From Candidatus Poribacteria bacterium WGA-3G (GTDB lineage Bacteria; Poribacteria; WGA-4E; WGA-3G), in NCBI GenBank assembly GCA_000406005.1, contig ASZN01000021.1, positions 3,309 through 67,308 on the forward strand: a stretch of DNA of 64,000 bases, in the 5' to 3' direction. Both the position numbers and the translations under genes were made by a program. Position 1 is the first letter of the stretch, and each line of letters begins with the position of its first letter. The notes below the pieces were generated by a model. That model was not told where the DNA came from. It saw nothing but the letters and a program-made list of their open reading frames with translations, and searched no databases. Positions 40,525 to 45,099 of the stretch are shown here, in pieces.

Positions 40525-40688
40525 AATATCAACATCTTACGTGATTCCGAAAAAAAAGTCAAGTGCGAAGAAAAATCAATCAGGAACTAAATCGTCCTGA
40601 AATGCCAATTTATTTTTCAGATTTGGTATAAAATTTCACATAAACACAGCGAGATAGACTTTTTTTTCAAAATAACGCCAAAAAAAAG

Positions 40689-40719
40689 TTGACAAACACT
40701 AAAGAAATAGAGTATACTA
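40689..40719 (+). promoter_or_regulatory. putative sigma-70 promoter of the tRNA-Leu gene (TTGACA ... TATACT, 19-nt spacer)
   Basis: The -35 is consensus. The -10 ends about 13 nt before the tRNA 5' end. Spacing is suboptimal. Confidence 0.3.
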
Positions 40720-40767
40720 TTAATATTATTGTGGTCGAGTGGTGGAATCGGTAGACACAACGGACTT

Positions 40768-43185
40768 GTGCGCCATTGTGCTAATGTGCCCAATTGAGAT
40801 ATAAATCTCTATACTAATTAGGAAATGGTATAAAGCCAACTGCTTTAGGGTAAAGAGAAATCTAAACCTGAACATAGCATAGCAGTAAAGGATAGAATGG
40901 ATGAACTAACCTAATCCAAAGCTATTCAAGGCTTGAGAGATATGGTAAGAGTTATACTACCCGAAATCCAATACGCAGGAGTAAGTGTGGCTAAAAGGGC
41001 AAGGTTAGTGATGCCCCCACTAAGAGATGACATTAGATTTTAAGTCTGTCTAATGCCTTCCTAAATCTCTTAGACACTGTGAAATATACACAGGCAAGCG
41101 TATGAGTGGATTACCTAAGTCTCTCTATCGTTGACACATTGGAACTATGGGATAGTCTAAAGGGTGAGAACCCCATGGCTACGGAGTTTCCATAGTAGTC
41201 GCTCTCAACTGAGAATAAGACTATGCGAAGGTATAGTGAAGATGAAGGGAAACAGGTAAGTTAATCCAAGTAGATATAAGAGTAATGCGAAATGCATATT
41301 ATCTCGAATAAATACCTTGGAATAGTGAGTGATAGAGGAAAAAGAAATCTTCCGCTAAAGCGCGTATACTCTAATATGTGCGATAGAGAATTATTTCTAA
41401 TTGCCTATCATCAAATGGCGAAAAAGAAAGGTGCCATGACAAAGGGGTCTAACTCCGAAAACATTGATGAAATGTCGATTACAAAAATAGATAAAATCAT
41501 CAATGAACTTAAAACCGGAAAATATAGACCCAAACCCAGTCGTAGGGTCTATGTATCTAAACCAGACGGAAAACAAAGATGTTTAGGAATACCATGCTGG
41601 ACAGACAAACTCGTCCAACGTGTAGTAACGATGATACTGGGAGAATACTATGAACCCCAGTTCTCAGATCACTCGCATGGATTTAGACCCAATAGAGGTT
41701 GTCATACTGCTTTGGAAGAAATAGCCATAGCGTGGAAAGGGACAAAGTGGTTTATAGAAGGAGACATAAAGGGCTGCTTCGACAACATAAACCATGAATA
41801 CCTACTGAAGATCCTAAGAAAAAGGATTTTAGATGAAAGACTCATTAAACTCATTCGTATATGGCTAAAAGCCGGGTATATCGAGAATTGGACATACCAC
41901 AACACATACTCAGGCACGCCACAAGGCGGCGTTATGAGTCCTCTACTGGCTAACATATACCTCTCTGAATTAGATGAAAAATTAGAAGAATTATCTGAAA
42001 TCTGGAAAGTAGGAAAATCAAGAGGAACAAACCCCGAATACGCTAAACTATCGCGAAAAATCAACAAAGCAAAGAAGGAAAATAACGCCCAAGAAGCAAA
42101 AGAAGCACGGAAAGAACTTAACATCGCTAAAAGCAAAGGGCTTACTTGGTCGAATCCGCAAGATGACAATTTCCGCAGACTAAAATTTGTCAGATACGCA
42201 GACGATTTTATTATCGGATTTATCGGTAGCAAAGCAGAAGCCAAAGACATCAAAAAGGAAGTCAAAACTTTCCTCAAAGATGAAATTGGACTCACGCTAT
42301 CGGACGATAAAACGAAAATAACGAACGCGACACACGAAAAAGCACGCTTTCTTAACTACGAAATCTTTACCGAGAAATCAACAACAAGACCAAGAATAAA
42401 TGGAACAATCCGCTTGGACTTGCCTCACGACGTGTTCATAAAATGGAAAAGGAAGTATACTAAGAAAGGGAAAGCCTATCACAGCCCCTACTACATGGAA
42501 CTATCCGATTATATGATAATCAGGGCATATAATGCAGAGTTTCAAGGTCTCTATCAGTATTACATAATGGCTCAAAACGTATCGAGCAAATTATATCAAT
42601 TGAAGAGCTATGTGATGACATCAGCAGCTAAAACCTTGGCATCCAAACACAAACTCTCTGTAAACAAAATATGCGAAAAATATAAGAGGACCGGCAGCAA
42701 CGGCGTAAAAGCACTCATAGTAGAGGTCAATAGAAAGGATAAACCGCCCTTAGTCGCCACATTAGGGGACTTCCAAATAAAATGGGTAAAGTTTCCGAGT
42801 AAGAAAGATAAGCCATACAACGATGAAATTAGAGGTATAAAAGTTCTTGATGATAAAAAAAGTGTCCGGTCTGACCTCCTAACAAGGCTTATGAATAACA
42901 CTTGTGAAATATGTGGAAATACGGATGAAATAGAAGTACACCACATCAGAAAAATGAGTGATATTGATAAGAACAAAGAAGGATGGCAAAAACTCATGAG
43001 TAGCATGAGACGAAAGACACTCATCGTCTGCAAGGACTGTCATCATAAAATCCATATAGGAAAATATGATGGAAAATCACTATAAAAACTTACTGGAGAG
43101 CTACGTGCATTGAAAAGTGCAAGCGTGGTTCGGAGGGGGACTATTGAAAACACAGATGATGCTGTGCGTTGGTAGTCTACCCTAC
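40768..43185 (+). mobile_element. group II intron (~2.4 kb) with an intron-encoded protein in domain IV
   Basis: 5' GTGCG. Domain V is GAGAGCTACGTGCATT-GAAA-AGTGCAAGCGTGGTTC (AGC triad, GAAA loop) at about 43098-43131. Domain VI follows and the 3' end is ...CCTAC. The ORF at 41292-43085 encodes RT, maturase (X) and HNH domains. Confidence 0.85.
41292..43085 (+). CDS. group II intron reverse transcriptase/maturase with C-terminal HNH endonuclease domain
   Basis: RT motifs include FVRYADDFIIGF (YADD). An X/maturase region is present. HNH/zinc-finger-like sequence: CEICGNTDEIEVHHI...CKDCHHKIH. Confidence 0.9.
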   Translation: MHIISNKYLGIVSDRGKRNLPLKRVYSNMCDRELFLIAYHQMAKKKGAMTKGSNSENIDEMSITKIDKIINELKTGKYRPKPSRRVYVSKPDGKQRCLGIPCWTDKLVQRVVTMILGEYYEPQFSDHSHGFRPNRGCHTALEEIAIAWKGTKWFIEGDIKGCFDNINHEYLLKILRKRILDERLIKLIRIWLKAGYIENWTYHNTYSGTPQGGVMSPLLANIYLSELDEKLEELSEIWKVGKSRGTNPEYAKLSRKINKAKKENNAQEAKEARKELNIAKSKGLTWSNPQDDNFRRLKFVRYADDFIIGFIGSKAEAKDIKKEVKTFLKDEIGLTLSDDKTKITNATHEKARFLNYEIFTEKSTTRPRINGTIRLDLPHDVFIKWKRKYTKKGKAYHSPYYMELSDYMIIRAYNAEFQGLYQYYIMAQNVSSKLYQLKSYVMTSAAKTLASKHKLSVNKICEKYKRTGSNGVKALIVEVNRKDKPPLVATLGDFQIKWVKFPSKKDKPYNDEIRGIKVLDDKKSVRSDLLTRLMNNTCEICGNTDEIEVHHIRKMSDIDKNKEGWQKLMSSMRRKTLIVCKDCHHKIHIGKYDGKSL

Positions 43186-43250
43186 AAAATCCGTCGCCCT
43201 AAACAGGTGTGAGGGTTCAAGTCCCTCCTCGACCATAATTCAATACAAGT

Positions 43251-43340
43251 AGAACTTACGCGCTTCCACGGTAGGTGCGGTTTCATAACCGCACCCGATT
43301 ACGTCATCATAGACCTAATTCTCTGATTTCGCGTAAGTCT
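43251..43340. repeat. short MITE/REP-like element (TIR AGAACTTACGCG...CGCGTAAGTCT) enclosing the palindrome GGTGCGGTTTCATAACCGCACC
   Basis: Shares the ACTTACGC terminal motif with the main MITE family. Confidence 0.55.
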
Positions 43341-43356
43341 TGACAATAATTCTTGA

Positions 43357-43430
43357 CGCAGGGTAGAGCAGCCAGGTAGCTCGTCGGGCTCATAACCCGG
43401 AGGACGGGGGTTCAAATCCCCCCCCCTGCA
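43357..43430 (+). tRNA. initiator tRNA-fMet (CAU)
   Basis: CGCAGGGTAGAGCAGCCAGGTAGCTCGTCGGGCTCATAACCCGGAGG...: C1:A72 mismatch, three G:C pairs in the anticodon stem, anticodon CAT. Closely matches E. coli tRNA-fMet as recalled. Confidence 0.85.
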
Positions 43431-43525
43431 ATCTTCTCAACCCCTAAATGTTCTTTGATACATCAACGATAACATACAAAAAACACACTTAACCTCATCG
43501 TTTCCGATAATCCATCTCAACCTAT

Positions 43526-43599
43526 GCCGGTGTAGCTCAGTGGTTTAGAGCACACGACTCATAATCGTGCTGTCCGGAGTTCGACTCTCCGCACCGGCA
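43526..43599 (+). tRNA. tRNA with CAU anticodon (elongator Met or tRNA-Ile2, the lysidine substrate)
   Basis: GCCGGTG-TA-GCTC-AGTGGTTTA-GAGC-A-CACGA-CTCATAA-TCGTG-CTGTC-CGGAG-TTCGACT-CTCCG-CACCGGC-A. Confidence 0.85.
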
Positions 43600-43653
43600 T
43601 CGTTCTACCGTTTAAGCGGTGGGATACAATTTGCCGTTAAAATTGGCGACCTC

Positions 43654-45099
43654 ATGACAGCCGACTTCGTTCAACAGATGCACCGCTCCATAGCAGAGCA
43701 TAAAATGATTGAGGACGCTGAAACTGTGCTCGTCGCAGTCTCAGGCGGCGCAGATTCGCTTGCACTCCTATACGCACTGCACGCTTTACGCCAACAACTC
43801 AGATGTCATCTGCACGTTGTACATCTAAACCACTGCCTCCGACCAGACGCTGACACAGACGCTGACTTCGTCCGACAACACGCAGAACACCTAAATCTGC
43901 CTTGCACCCTCCAACAGGTAGATGTGTTCCGTTTAGCAAAACAGTGGAAACTCTCTGTAGAAACCGCCGGACGCAGAGCACGCTATCAATTCTATGATTC
44001 CGTCTGTTCGGAAACCGACGCGACGAAAGTCGCCTTAGGACACCACCAAGACGACATCGCCGAAACGGTTCTGATGAACCTCATACGCGGGAGCGGAACC
44101 GACGGATTGAAAGGCATCGTTCCCGTCAGGGATATGAAATTTATTAGACCTCTGATAGAATTTACACGTCAACAGATTGAGGCGTTCCTAACGTCCATAG
44201 GTATTGTCCCGCGACACGATTCAACCAACACCGATACACGCTATCTTCGCAATCGTATCCGCCACGAGTTGATACCAAGGCTTGAGAACAATTATAATCC
44301 AAATATCAAAGCCGCATTAAGCCGGACTGCTGATGTATTAGGTACTGAATCGGAATACCTTGATACAATCGCTTGCACAGCGTTTGAGGCGTGCCAAATA
44401 CAAGTCTCGCAAGAGACTATTATCCTTGATAGGGAAAAATTTCGACAGCACCACATCGCACTGCAGAGACGGATCCTCCGGAAAAGCGTATCCGAGATGT
44501 TAGGCGATTCGAGCGATCTCTATTTCAAACACTGCATCGCGATGCAAAATCTCATTGAAGGCGACGCACCTAATGCTGTCCTGCCACTTCCGAACGGTTT
44601 ACAATTTCGGCGTGCATATCAACGGATCGCCTTTGAAAGAAAAACAACTGAAATAGGAAACTTCTCCTATCCGATCGCCACTGTTGGAAAAACACTTATA
44701 GCGGCTTTAAATGCCGAAATTATTGCAGAATTGGGGGATGGAACATCTCGTAGAACACCCACACCACCCAATGGCAAATTTGAAGCGATATTTGATTATC
44801 AAAAGTTAAGAAAGGTATTTGCAGAACCGTTTTCAGAAGCAATCCCGCTCACATTGCGTAATCGGCGACAAGGCGACCGGTTTCAGCCGTACGGTATGCA
44901 AGGGACGAAAAAAATTAAGGATTTTTTGATAGATGCCAAGGTGCCTCGCCACGAACGCGACAACATTCCGCTCCTTGTTTGCGGCGATGTGATCTTGTGG
45001 GTCATCGGTTATACAACCAGCGATCTTTTCAAGGTCCAACCGCACACACAACACTATCTCTACCTAAGTTATGCCAGCAGCGACGAAACCGCTCCCTGA
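43654..45099 (+). CDS. tilS: tRNA(Ile)-lysidine synthetase
   Basis: PP-loop VAVSGGADSLALLY plus a TilS C-terminal domain. The listed ORF begins inside the tRNA; ATG 43654 is preferred. Confidence 0.85.
   Translation: MTADFVQQMHRSIAEHKMIEDAETVLVAVSGGADSLALLYALHALRQQLRCHLHVVHLNHCLRPDADTDADFVRQHAEHLNLPCTLQQVDVFRLAKQWKLSVETAGRRARYQFYDSVCSETDATKVALGHHQDDIAETVLMNLIRGSGTDGLKGIVPVRDMKFIRPLIEFTRQQIEAFLTSIGIVPRHDSTNTDTRYLRNRIRHELIPRLENNYNPNIKAALSRTADVLGTESEYLDTIACTAFEACQIQVSQETIILDREKFRQHHIALQRRILRKSVSEMLGDSSDLYFKHCIAMQNLIEGDAPNAVLPLPNGLQFRRAYQRIAFERKTTEIGNFSYPIATVGKTLIAALNAEIIAELGDGTSRRTPTPPNGKFEAIFDYQKLRKVFAEPFSEAIPLTLRNRRQGDRFQPYGMQGTKKIKDFLIDAKVPRHERDNIPLLVCGDVILWVIGYTTSDLFKVQPHTQHYLYLSYASSDETAP

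Follow-up and report, generated by a model that had tools for sequence, protein, structure and literature searches.

A tRNA-Leu(UAA) gene is split within its anticodon

In a stretch of 64,000 nucleotides from contig ASZN01000021.1 of Candidatus Poribacteria bacterium WGA-3G, a bacterium of the sponge-symbiont type (the stretch is hereafter called the window), the forward strand carries a tRNA-Leu(UAA) gene whose anticodon is interrupted by a group II intron with an open reading frame (ORF) of its own. A preliminary description of this DNA had proposed such a gene, split between U34 and A35, and we found all the elements that it described, in the positions that it gave. The 5' exon (40733–40767; 35 nt, GGTCGAGTGGTGGAATCGGTAGACACAACGGACTT) supplies the 5' strand of the acceptor stem, the D arm, the 5' strand of the anticodon stem and nucleotides C32, U33 and U34, and ends in ACGGA-CTT. 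It is followed by the intron (40768–43185; 2418 nt, GTGCG...CCCTAC) and by the 3' exon (43186–43235; 50 nt, AAAATCCGTCGCCCTAAACAGGTGTGAGGGTTCAAGTCCCTCCTCGACCA), which starts with AAAATCCGT, ends with CTCGACC-A and holds A35, A36, the rest of the anticodon arm, the long variable arm, the T arm, the 3' strand of the acceptor stem and the discriminator base A73 (43235). The two exons, when joined, give an 85-nt class-II tRNA-Leu with a cloverleaf, a long variable arm and the anticodon UAA. The terminal CCA is not encoded by the gene, A73 being followed by TAATT.

ARAGORN called the joined exons as an 85-nt tRNA-Leu(taa), in keeping with the expectation that the concatenated exons would fold as a tRNA. 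With introns allowed, the program located the gene at its position in the window and gave the intron a length of 2418 nt; in its default mode it reported two tRNA-CAU genes only in the whole window and missed the split gene. No second tRNA-Leu was detected by ARAGORN in the 64-kb window. The proposed boundaries, which had been said to reconstitute the anticodon loop, were the only ones among 49 junction offsets (−3 to +3) that combined full exons with a standard 7-nt UAA loop; a junction shortened by −1/+1 was likewise called taa, and several in-phase shifts resulted in Leu(caa). The predicted ligated junction reads ...GGACUU|AAAAUCC..., or ...ACGGACUU|AAAAUCCGU... as DNA. A putative sigma-70-like promoter (TTGACA-18-TATACT, 40689–40718, forward strand) that agrees with the consensus at 11/12 positions lies 14 nt upstream of the tRNA 5' end. 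Nothing else in the region resembles a promoter as closely, and the TTGACA...TATACT arrangement recurs 5' of the homologous gene in two of the related contigs considered below (L001 and L003).

The intron belongs to group II and encodes an LtrA-like protein

The ends of the intron agree with the group II boundary consensus (5' GUGYG, 3' AY), with GUGCG at 40768–40772 and CUAC at 43182–43185, and identical boundary motifs were present in 11 relatives. The search with Rfam models gave a match to RF00029 (domains V/VI) at 43096–43185 that scored 56.4 bits, above the gathering score of 40, and that terminated precisely at the proposed 3' splice site. Domain V (43098–43131) is a 34-nt hairpin with the AGC triad at 43099–43101 and a GAAA loop, and in domain VI (43134–43183) A43179, at a distance of 7 nt from the 3' splice site, bulges out as the branch point. 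Folding of the two domains, of which domain V had been described as a textbook one, gave z = −4.9 with A43179 bulged. In a comparison of 10 introns, compensatory changes were seen in 18 of the 31 pairs of domains V/VI, and the bulged A was invariant. Domains I–III could be aligned with those of 11 related introns and contained conserved blocks. The G+C content of the intron is 39%, compared with 48% for the window. We also considered a group I intron or a further RNA family in the region, and both were rejected: no group I model of Rfam matched the region 40600–43700 even at E ≤ 1.

Within domain IV the intron encodes a protein of 597 amino acids (41292–43085, forward strand) with reverse transcriptase (RT), maturase (X), DNA-binding (D) and HNH endonuclease (En) regions. 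The RT motifs, including YADD (42195–42206), the maturase region and the HNH domain that had been recognised by eye were recovered by Pfam (RVT_1, 2.6e-35; Intron_maturas2, 1e-8; AI2M-like_HNH, 1e-14) and by homology to LtrA, to which the protein aligned end to end (5g2x_C, E = 1.4e-110, residues 22–588), the YADD and the zinc-finger/HNH motifs (CxxC...HH) included. Among the matches in the PDB, LtrA ranked well above the RTs of introns of types IIB and IIC, which matched the RT core only. The score against TIGR04416, the NCBIfam model for group II RT/maturases, was 295 bits at a cut-off of 300. The domain order RT, X, D and En (HNH) is that of LtrA/aI2-type proteins of the mitochondrial-like (ML) class. 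We thus assign the intron to group II, class IIA/ML, the ML placement being a prediction from two proxies, namely the PDB ranking of protein matches and a rough neighbour-joining tree of the 120 nearest protein homologues.

Exon recognition places the splice sites

A hairpin of domain I carries the terminal loop UUUU-AAGUCUG (41038–41048), which contains exon-binding site 1 (EBS1; AAGUCUG, 41042–41048) and, directly beside it, the delta nucleotide (U41041). EBS1 is complementary to the last 7 nt of the 5' exon, which form intron-binding site 1 (IBS1; CGGACUU, 40761–40767), and delta can pair with A+1 of the 3' exon, that is with A35 (delta'). The preliminary description had predicted a pairing of EBS1 with the exon sequence GGACTT, and the pairing AAGUCUG:CGGACUU was confirmed by covariation in relatives with other targets. 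In an alignment of 12 introns, EBS1 and delta shifted in step with the exon across five exon contexts. The 5' exon end GACUU was accompanied by EBS1 AAGUC and a delta:+1 pair U:A, GGCUGU by ACAGCC and A:U, UGCCUU by AAGGCA and U:A, GGGAAA by UUUCCC and G:C, and AGGGA by UCCUU and U:A; by locus, delta:delta' was U:A in the window, A:U in L018, G:C in L101 and U:A in L103 and L102. Because EBS1 and delta covary with the exons, the splice sites are fixed independently of the tRNA argument. The position of delta next to EBS1, in place of an EBS3 in the coordination loop, is the IIA arrangement, and for this reason too the intron reads as IIA.

The assignment of EBS2 was less clear. A candidate loop (AAGUGUGG, 40983–40990) could form only 4 bp with the exon sequence ACAC. 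The homologous loop of two relatives can form 5–6 bp with the exon (GGUAC:GUACC in L101 and AAGUGU:GCGCUU in L018). When several EBS2 registers were compared by eye over the alignment of 12 introns, none gave a consistent assignment for the introns of the Poribacteria-type genomes.

The same intron occupies the same site in other Poribacteria-type genomes

The intron-encoded protein has about 8,000 close homologues. By tracing the nearest of them to their contigs, we found the U34|A35 intron of tRNA-Leu(UAA) in another four lineages, of which two or more are Candidatus Poribacteria. It occupies this site in Candidatus Poribacteria bacterium PCPOR2a (L001/L006; protein 78% identical), in a Candidatus Poribacteria contig of 5.9 Mb (L008), in a 1.6-Mb ENA contig syntenic with the window (L003) and in a TARA sequence (L015). 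A further contig, MKWU01040978.1 (L012), carries it too and matched the window at 99.96% identity along 2,502 bp. An assembly chimera or an annotation artefact is a general risk of metagenome-assembled genomes (MAGs), and nothing more speaks for it here; since at least six independent assemblies (NCBI, ENA, JGI and TARA) differ in sequence and are identical in architecture, we give this explanation practically no credence. Scanning of GTDB genomes with a junction pattern resulted in six matches, of which two were real (both Poribacteria) and four were due to chance, and the same pattern gave five matches in JGI metagenomes, one of them real (MKWU01040978.1). A looser pattern applied to viral contigs gave three chance matches and no tRNA.

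The conservation of the exons differed markedly from that of their surroundings. Between lineages the exons were 92–95% identical, compared with 72–81% for the intron RNA and its ORF (the DNA of the intron had diverged by 20–28%), and the 5' exon was identical in five Poribacteria-type lineages apart from one compensated change. Differences between the exons are compensatory. Pair 28:42 of the anticodon stem, whose halves lie 2.4 kb apart across the intron, reads C-G in three of the lineages and U-A in two others. We examined the cloverleaf with a set of seven spliced and two intron-borne tRNA-Leu sequences (the latter are described below), using 500 shuffles and slid registers as controls. 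All 24 helix pairs were standard in 216/216 cells, 15 pairs showed compensatory changes, and all five pairs of the anticodon stem, whose strands stand on opposite sides of the intron, covaried. This covariation was reached by 0/500 shuffles, and no slid register came close. The intron-encoded protein, when compared with its orthologues, showed a ratio of non-synonymous to synonymous substitution (dN/dS) of 0.03–0.10, with synonymous sites near saturation, and its ORF was intact in 9/10 relatives.

These data bear on the idea that the split gene is a dead copy, knocked out by a mobile intron, while an intact tRNA-Leu(UAA) gene elsewhere does the decoding and splicing is irrelevant to the host. 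The preliminary description had stated that bacterial group II introns usually sit outside essential genes, which agrees with the literature (Dai and Zimmerly 2002, cited in PMC13011429) and would favour a dead copy, as would the fact that the absence of another tRNA-Leu refers to the 64-kb window only. We nevertheless consider a dead copy quite unlikely. Its exons would have had to hold their 92–95% identity while the intron and the neighbouring genes diverged by 20–35%, to acquire compensatory substitutions in the anticodon stem, the variable arm and the T stem, and to retain a promoter. Given the conserved exons beside a diverged intron, the compensatory changes in the anticodon stem and the dN/dS values, the split gene is old, inherited and almost certainly spliced rather than wrecked. 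Purifying selection on the exons and on the intron protein is evident, and the RNA and protein parts predicted to be needed for splicing are all present and stand under selection.

At the DNA level, the genes that flank the split tRNA shared 65–80% identity with their counterparts in L001, L003 and L008, which marks the window as part of a Poribacteria-type genome. The intron, at 73–78% identity, has diverged to about the same extent as the genes beside it; the local order of tRNA-Leu followed by tRNA-CAU was kept in the relatives. In PCPOR2a an IS605 OrfB/TnpB-like gene (L001:918-1997) precedes the split tRNA-Leu at a distance of about 1.4 kb, and local synteny with the window is broken there.

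Predicted splicing and the need for the tRNA

Taken together, we read the locus as a tRNA-Leu(UAA) gene that is functional and single-locus, belongs to a Poribacteria-type bacterium and is interrupted at U34|A35 by a resident LtrA-like group II intron of the IIA, mitochondrial-like class, and we place the probability of this reading at roughly 85%. A precursor of about 2.5 kb would be transcribed from the gene's own sigma-70-type promoter, and the protein encoded in domain IV would be translated and would bind the intron as a maturase, helping it to fold. Domain I would hold the 5' exon by the EBS1:IBS1 pairing and the 3' exon by delta:delta' (U:A). Attack of A43179 on G40768 would then lead to ligation of the exons and release of the intron as a lariat, the joined exons would form the anticodon stem, and RNase P, 3' trimming and CCA addition would complete the tRNA. 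Both the order of these processing steps and the dependence on the maturase are deduced from sequence. Retrohoming into the anticodon region, which is highly conserved, probably brought the intron to this site, and it would since have been inherited vertically in the clade.

UUA accounts for 123 of the 917 leucine codons (13%) in 24 host ORFs of the window, and every ORF contains at least two. Since UUA occurs in every host ORF checked, a tRNA with the anticodon UAA is needed. The intron-encoded protein itself holds nine UUA codons, which raises the question of a regulatory gate in place of a tolerated parasite, in which case the supply of tRNA-Leu(UAA), and with it the decoding of UUA, would be tuned by maturase-dependent splicing in a self-referential manner. 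The long retention of the intron under purifying selection, at a single fixed site in several lineages, would be consistent with such a role. Known systems that regulate through UUA use it as a rare codon, unlike the common UUA of the present ORFs, and the difficulty of precise intron loss would account for the retention equally well; we therefore regard regulation of this kind as unlikely.

Several points weigh against the reading of a functional, single-locus gene with a resident intron. Transcription and splicing are predictions from the sequence, and an intron-less tRNA-Leu(UAA) gene may lie outside the 64-kb window. The pairing of EBS2 with IBS2 in the Poribacteria-type introns lacks consistency and is weak (3–4 bp). 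The intron protein of L003 (L003:4001-5760) ends at 510 amino acids, with the HNH part in another frame; either the endonuclease domain has genuinely decayed, or the contig, a long-read one of low coverage (its name contains '6x'), is in error. Finally, the junction pattern was found in two GTDB species representatives only, so the intron may not be universal in the phylum.

Related introns occur in other tRNA genes, in radC and together with a second tRNA

More distant relatives of the intron-encoded protein (47–54% identical) occupied other contexts. Divergent tRNA-Leu(UAA) genes were again split at 34/35 in L002, in L016/L017 and in L099, an Anaerolineae MAG (GCA_023382535.1) in which the intron (L099:1940-4440) stands in an array of at least 15 tRNA genes and the split gene provides the Leu(UAA) tRNA that is missing among the other members of the array. 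In L103 the intron interrupts a tRNA-Leu(UAG) gene at 34/35, and in L018 (Logan DRR685001; L018:2440-4960) it is found at 35/36 of a tRNA-Asn(GUU)-like gene whose variable region, at 16 nt, is uncommonly long, within an array of 17 tRNAs. Two further introns (L101:1980-4415 and L102:1988-4386) were located in radC at the same codon position (...Y-Q/K-G | N/T-V-N...), and joining of the radC exons restored the RadC reading frame in both. As a negative control we used 80 relatives of the protein from viral contigs (37–48% identical), none of which was encoded in a tRNA gene. These comparisons indicate that related introns have repeatedly come to occupy tRNA anticodon loops.

The distribution also bears on whether the intron of the window could be a recent invader, still spreading and placed in each genome by independent retrohoming. 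Its RT and HNH domains are intact, its target sequence is nearly universal among bacteria, and related introns are found in tRNA-Leu(UAA) of taxa as distant as the Anaerolineae MAG and the MAG L002, whose S1 protein is nearest to that of Ca. Kapaibacterium (57% identical, a weak hint as to the taxon). Within the Poribacteria-type group, however, the divergence of the intron tracks that of the host genes, synonymous substitution in the intron protein approaches saturation and the synteny of tRNA-Leu with tRNA-CAU is kept; there is one copy per locus, and an RF00029 search found none elsewhere in the window. Recent and repeated invasion is in our opinion very unlikely.

A complete second tRNA-Leu(UAA) was present inside domain IV of the intron in two sister lineages (L002:3873-3959; L016:1048-1133 and L017:996-1081). 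These intron-borne tRNAs, with Rfam tRNA scores of 52.4 and 56.6 bits, sit about 40 nt upstream of the maturase start, and their flanks pair with each other, which puts the tRNA at the tip of a stem. They are 66–77% identical to the split host tRNAs, and the 5' strands of their anticodon stems (GGTCTT and GCACTT) mismatch the EBS1 of the intron. Since the EBS1 pairing is broken, the intron-borne copies should escape targeting. We found no literature precedent for a group II intron that carries a tRNA gene, the coverage of subscription journals being limited.

A broader view, which we put forward tentatively and hold to be somewhat less than an even prospect, is that these introns form an LtrA-like lineage specialised for tRNA anticodon loops, above all for U34|A35 of tRNA-Leu, over several phyla. 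In Poribacteria the intron would be fixed, vertically inherited and obligatory for the only UUA-reading tRNA, on which the maturase mRNA with its nine UUA codons would itself depend. In L002 and L016/L017 a homing-immune spare of the interrupted tRNA would make it possible for the element to enter an essential single-copy gene without death of the host.

Genes downstream of the split tRNA

The spacer between the split tRNA-Leu and the next tRNA gene (43236–43357) is about 120 nt long in the window, compared with 13–22 nt in L001, L003 and L015. Within the spacer an inverted repeat, ACTTACGCG...CGCGTAAGT (43257–43338), encloses a hairpin, GGTGCGGTTTCATAACCGCACC (43274–43295), resembling a CAU anticodon arm. 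No Rfam match was obtained for the spacer at E ≤ 1; its content may represent either the remnant of a tRNA or a small element that was inserted. Two tRNA-CAU genes follow. The first (43358–43430) is initiator-like, with three G-C pairs in its anticodon stem. The second (43525–43601) adjoins a tilS-like gene (43567–45099; tRNA-Ile lysidine synthase), whose longest-ORF call it overlaps and whose true start must lie downstream of 43601. Because it stands directly upstream of the tilS-like gene, the second tRNA may be tRNA-Ile2(CAU), the substrate of the tilS-like enzyme.

Relation to known introns

The closest well-known system is Ll.LtrB of Lactococcus lactis, a IIA intron that encodes LtrA. The proteins are alike over their full length, with RT, X, D and HNH regions, YADD and CxxC...HH; the RNAs share the 5' end GUGCGCC, a 34-nt domain V with AGC and GAAA and a bulged A in domain VI, as well as an EBS1 in a terminal loop of domain I with delta beside it pairing with position +1 of the 3' exon. 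The host site of Ll.LtrB is a relaxase gene on a conjugative element. The intron of the window, in contrast, lies in the anticodon loop of a chromosomal tRNA gene, and its EBS2 pairing is weak.

Group II introns of organellar tRNA genes (the trnK/matK type) resemble the present case in that they sit within the anticodon loop and in that splicing is required for an essential tRNA. The trnK intron encodes a maturase. The proteins of the organellar introns are degenerate or absent and have no HNH domain, whereas the protein of the window has a complete RT and HNH. None of these introns has been reported in trnL(UAA), which carries a group I intron, while that of the window stands at 34/35 of tRNA-Leu (for the organellar sites, see PMC1894977). 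With this site and with its complete RT and HNH, the intron of the window does not belong to the organellar type.

The preliminary description had further pointed out that the insertion is at the very position of the group I intron of cyanobacterial and plastid tRNA-Leu(UAA). This was confirmed from PMC13011429, which gives 34/35 of tRNA-Leu as the classic group I site; both the host gene and the exact U34|A35 position are shared. The ribozyme class is another, and splicing chemistry, size and coding content differ. Because no group I model matches the intron of the window, the shared site is a case of convergence and not of homology.

Group II introns inside tRNA genes of bacteria were described as extremely rare in a 2026 mSystems survey of 4,934 complete genomes (PMC13011429), which lists six of them, one interrupting a cyanobacterial tRNA-Ile2 at 35/36 and the remaining five belonging to a single Phytoplasma genome, and which states that none had been reported before. 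The survey introns are like that of the window in being group II introns of bacterial tRNA genes, mostly in the anticodon loop, and in having been detected with ARAGORN and RF00029. They differ in that only one of the six encodes an RT, whereas the intron of the window is in tRNA-Leu(UAA) at 34/35, encodes a complete protein and is conserved across several lineages. For none of the six does the survey state a location in Poribacteria or at tRNA-Leu 34/35, and Poribacteria are not named in the part of its supplementary text covered here. Nor did we find a literature precedent for group II introns in Poribacteria or in trnL(UAA), again with limited coverage of subscription journals. The intron belongs to a known family of ribozymes and retroelements; the host gene, the site and the long vertical retention are barely known for bacteria.

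Implications

The split gene runs counter to the expectation that bacterial group II introns avoid essential genes. For the annotation of genomes it means that default tRNA finders miss the gene, and that genomes of this kind would score as being without tRNA-Leu(UAA). A second, unrelated ribozyme class at the group I position of tRNA-Leu offers a natural comparison for why this site attracts or retains introns, and the series of retargeted introns in tRNA-Leu(UAA), tRNA-Leu(UAG), tRNA-Asn and radC is a natural data set for the rules of targeting by EBS1 and delta. The spare tRNAs carried by some of the related introns suggest a way, so far unreported, in which a mobile intron may neutralise its own cost. 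In the Poribacteria-type bacteria the reading of a common codon probably depends on splicing by a ribozyme, as it does in organelles; if the split gene is the sole tRNA-Leu(UAA) gene of the cell, the decoding of UUA, including that of the nine UUA codons of the maturase itself, would hang on the splicing of this intron.

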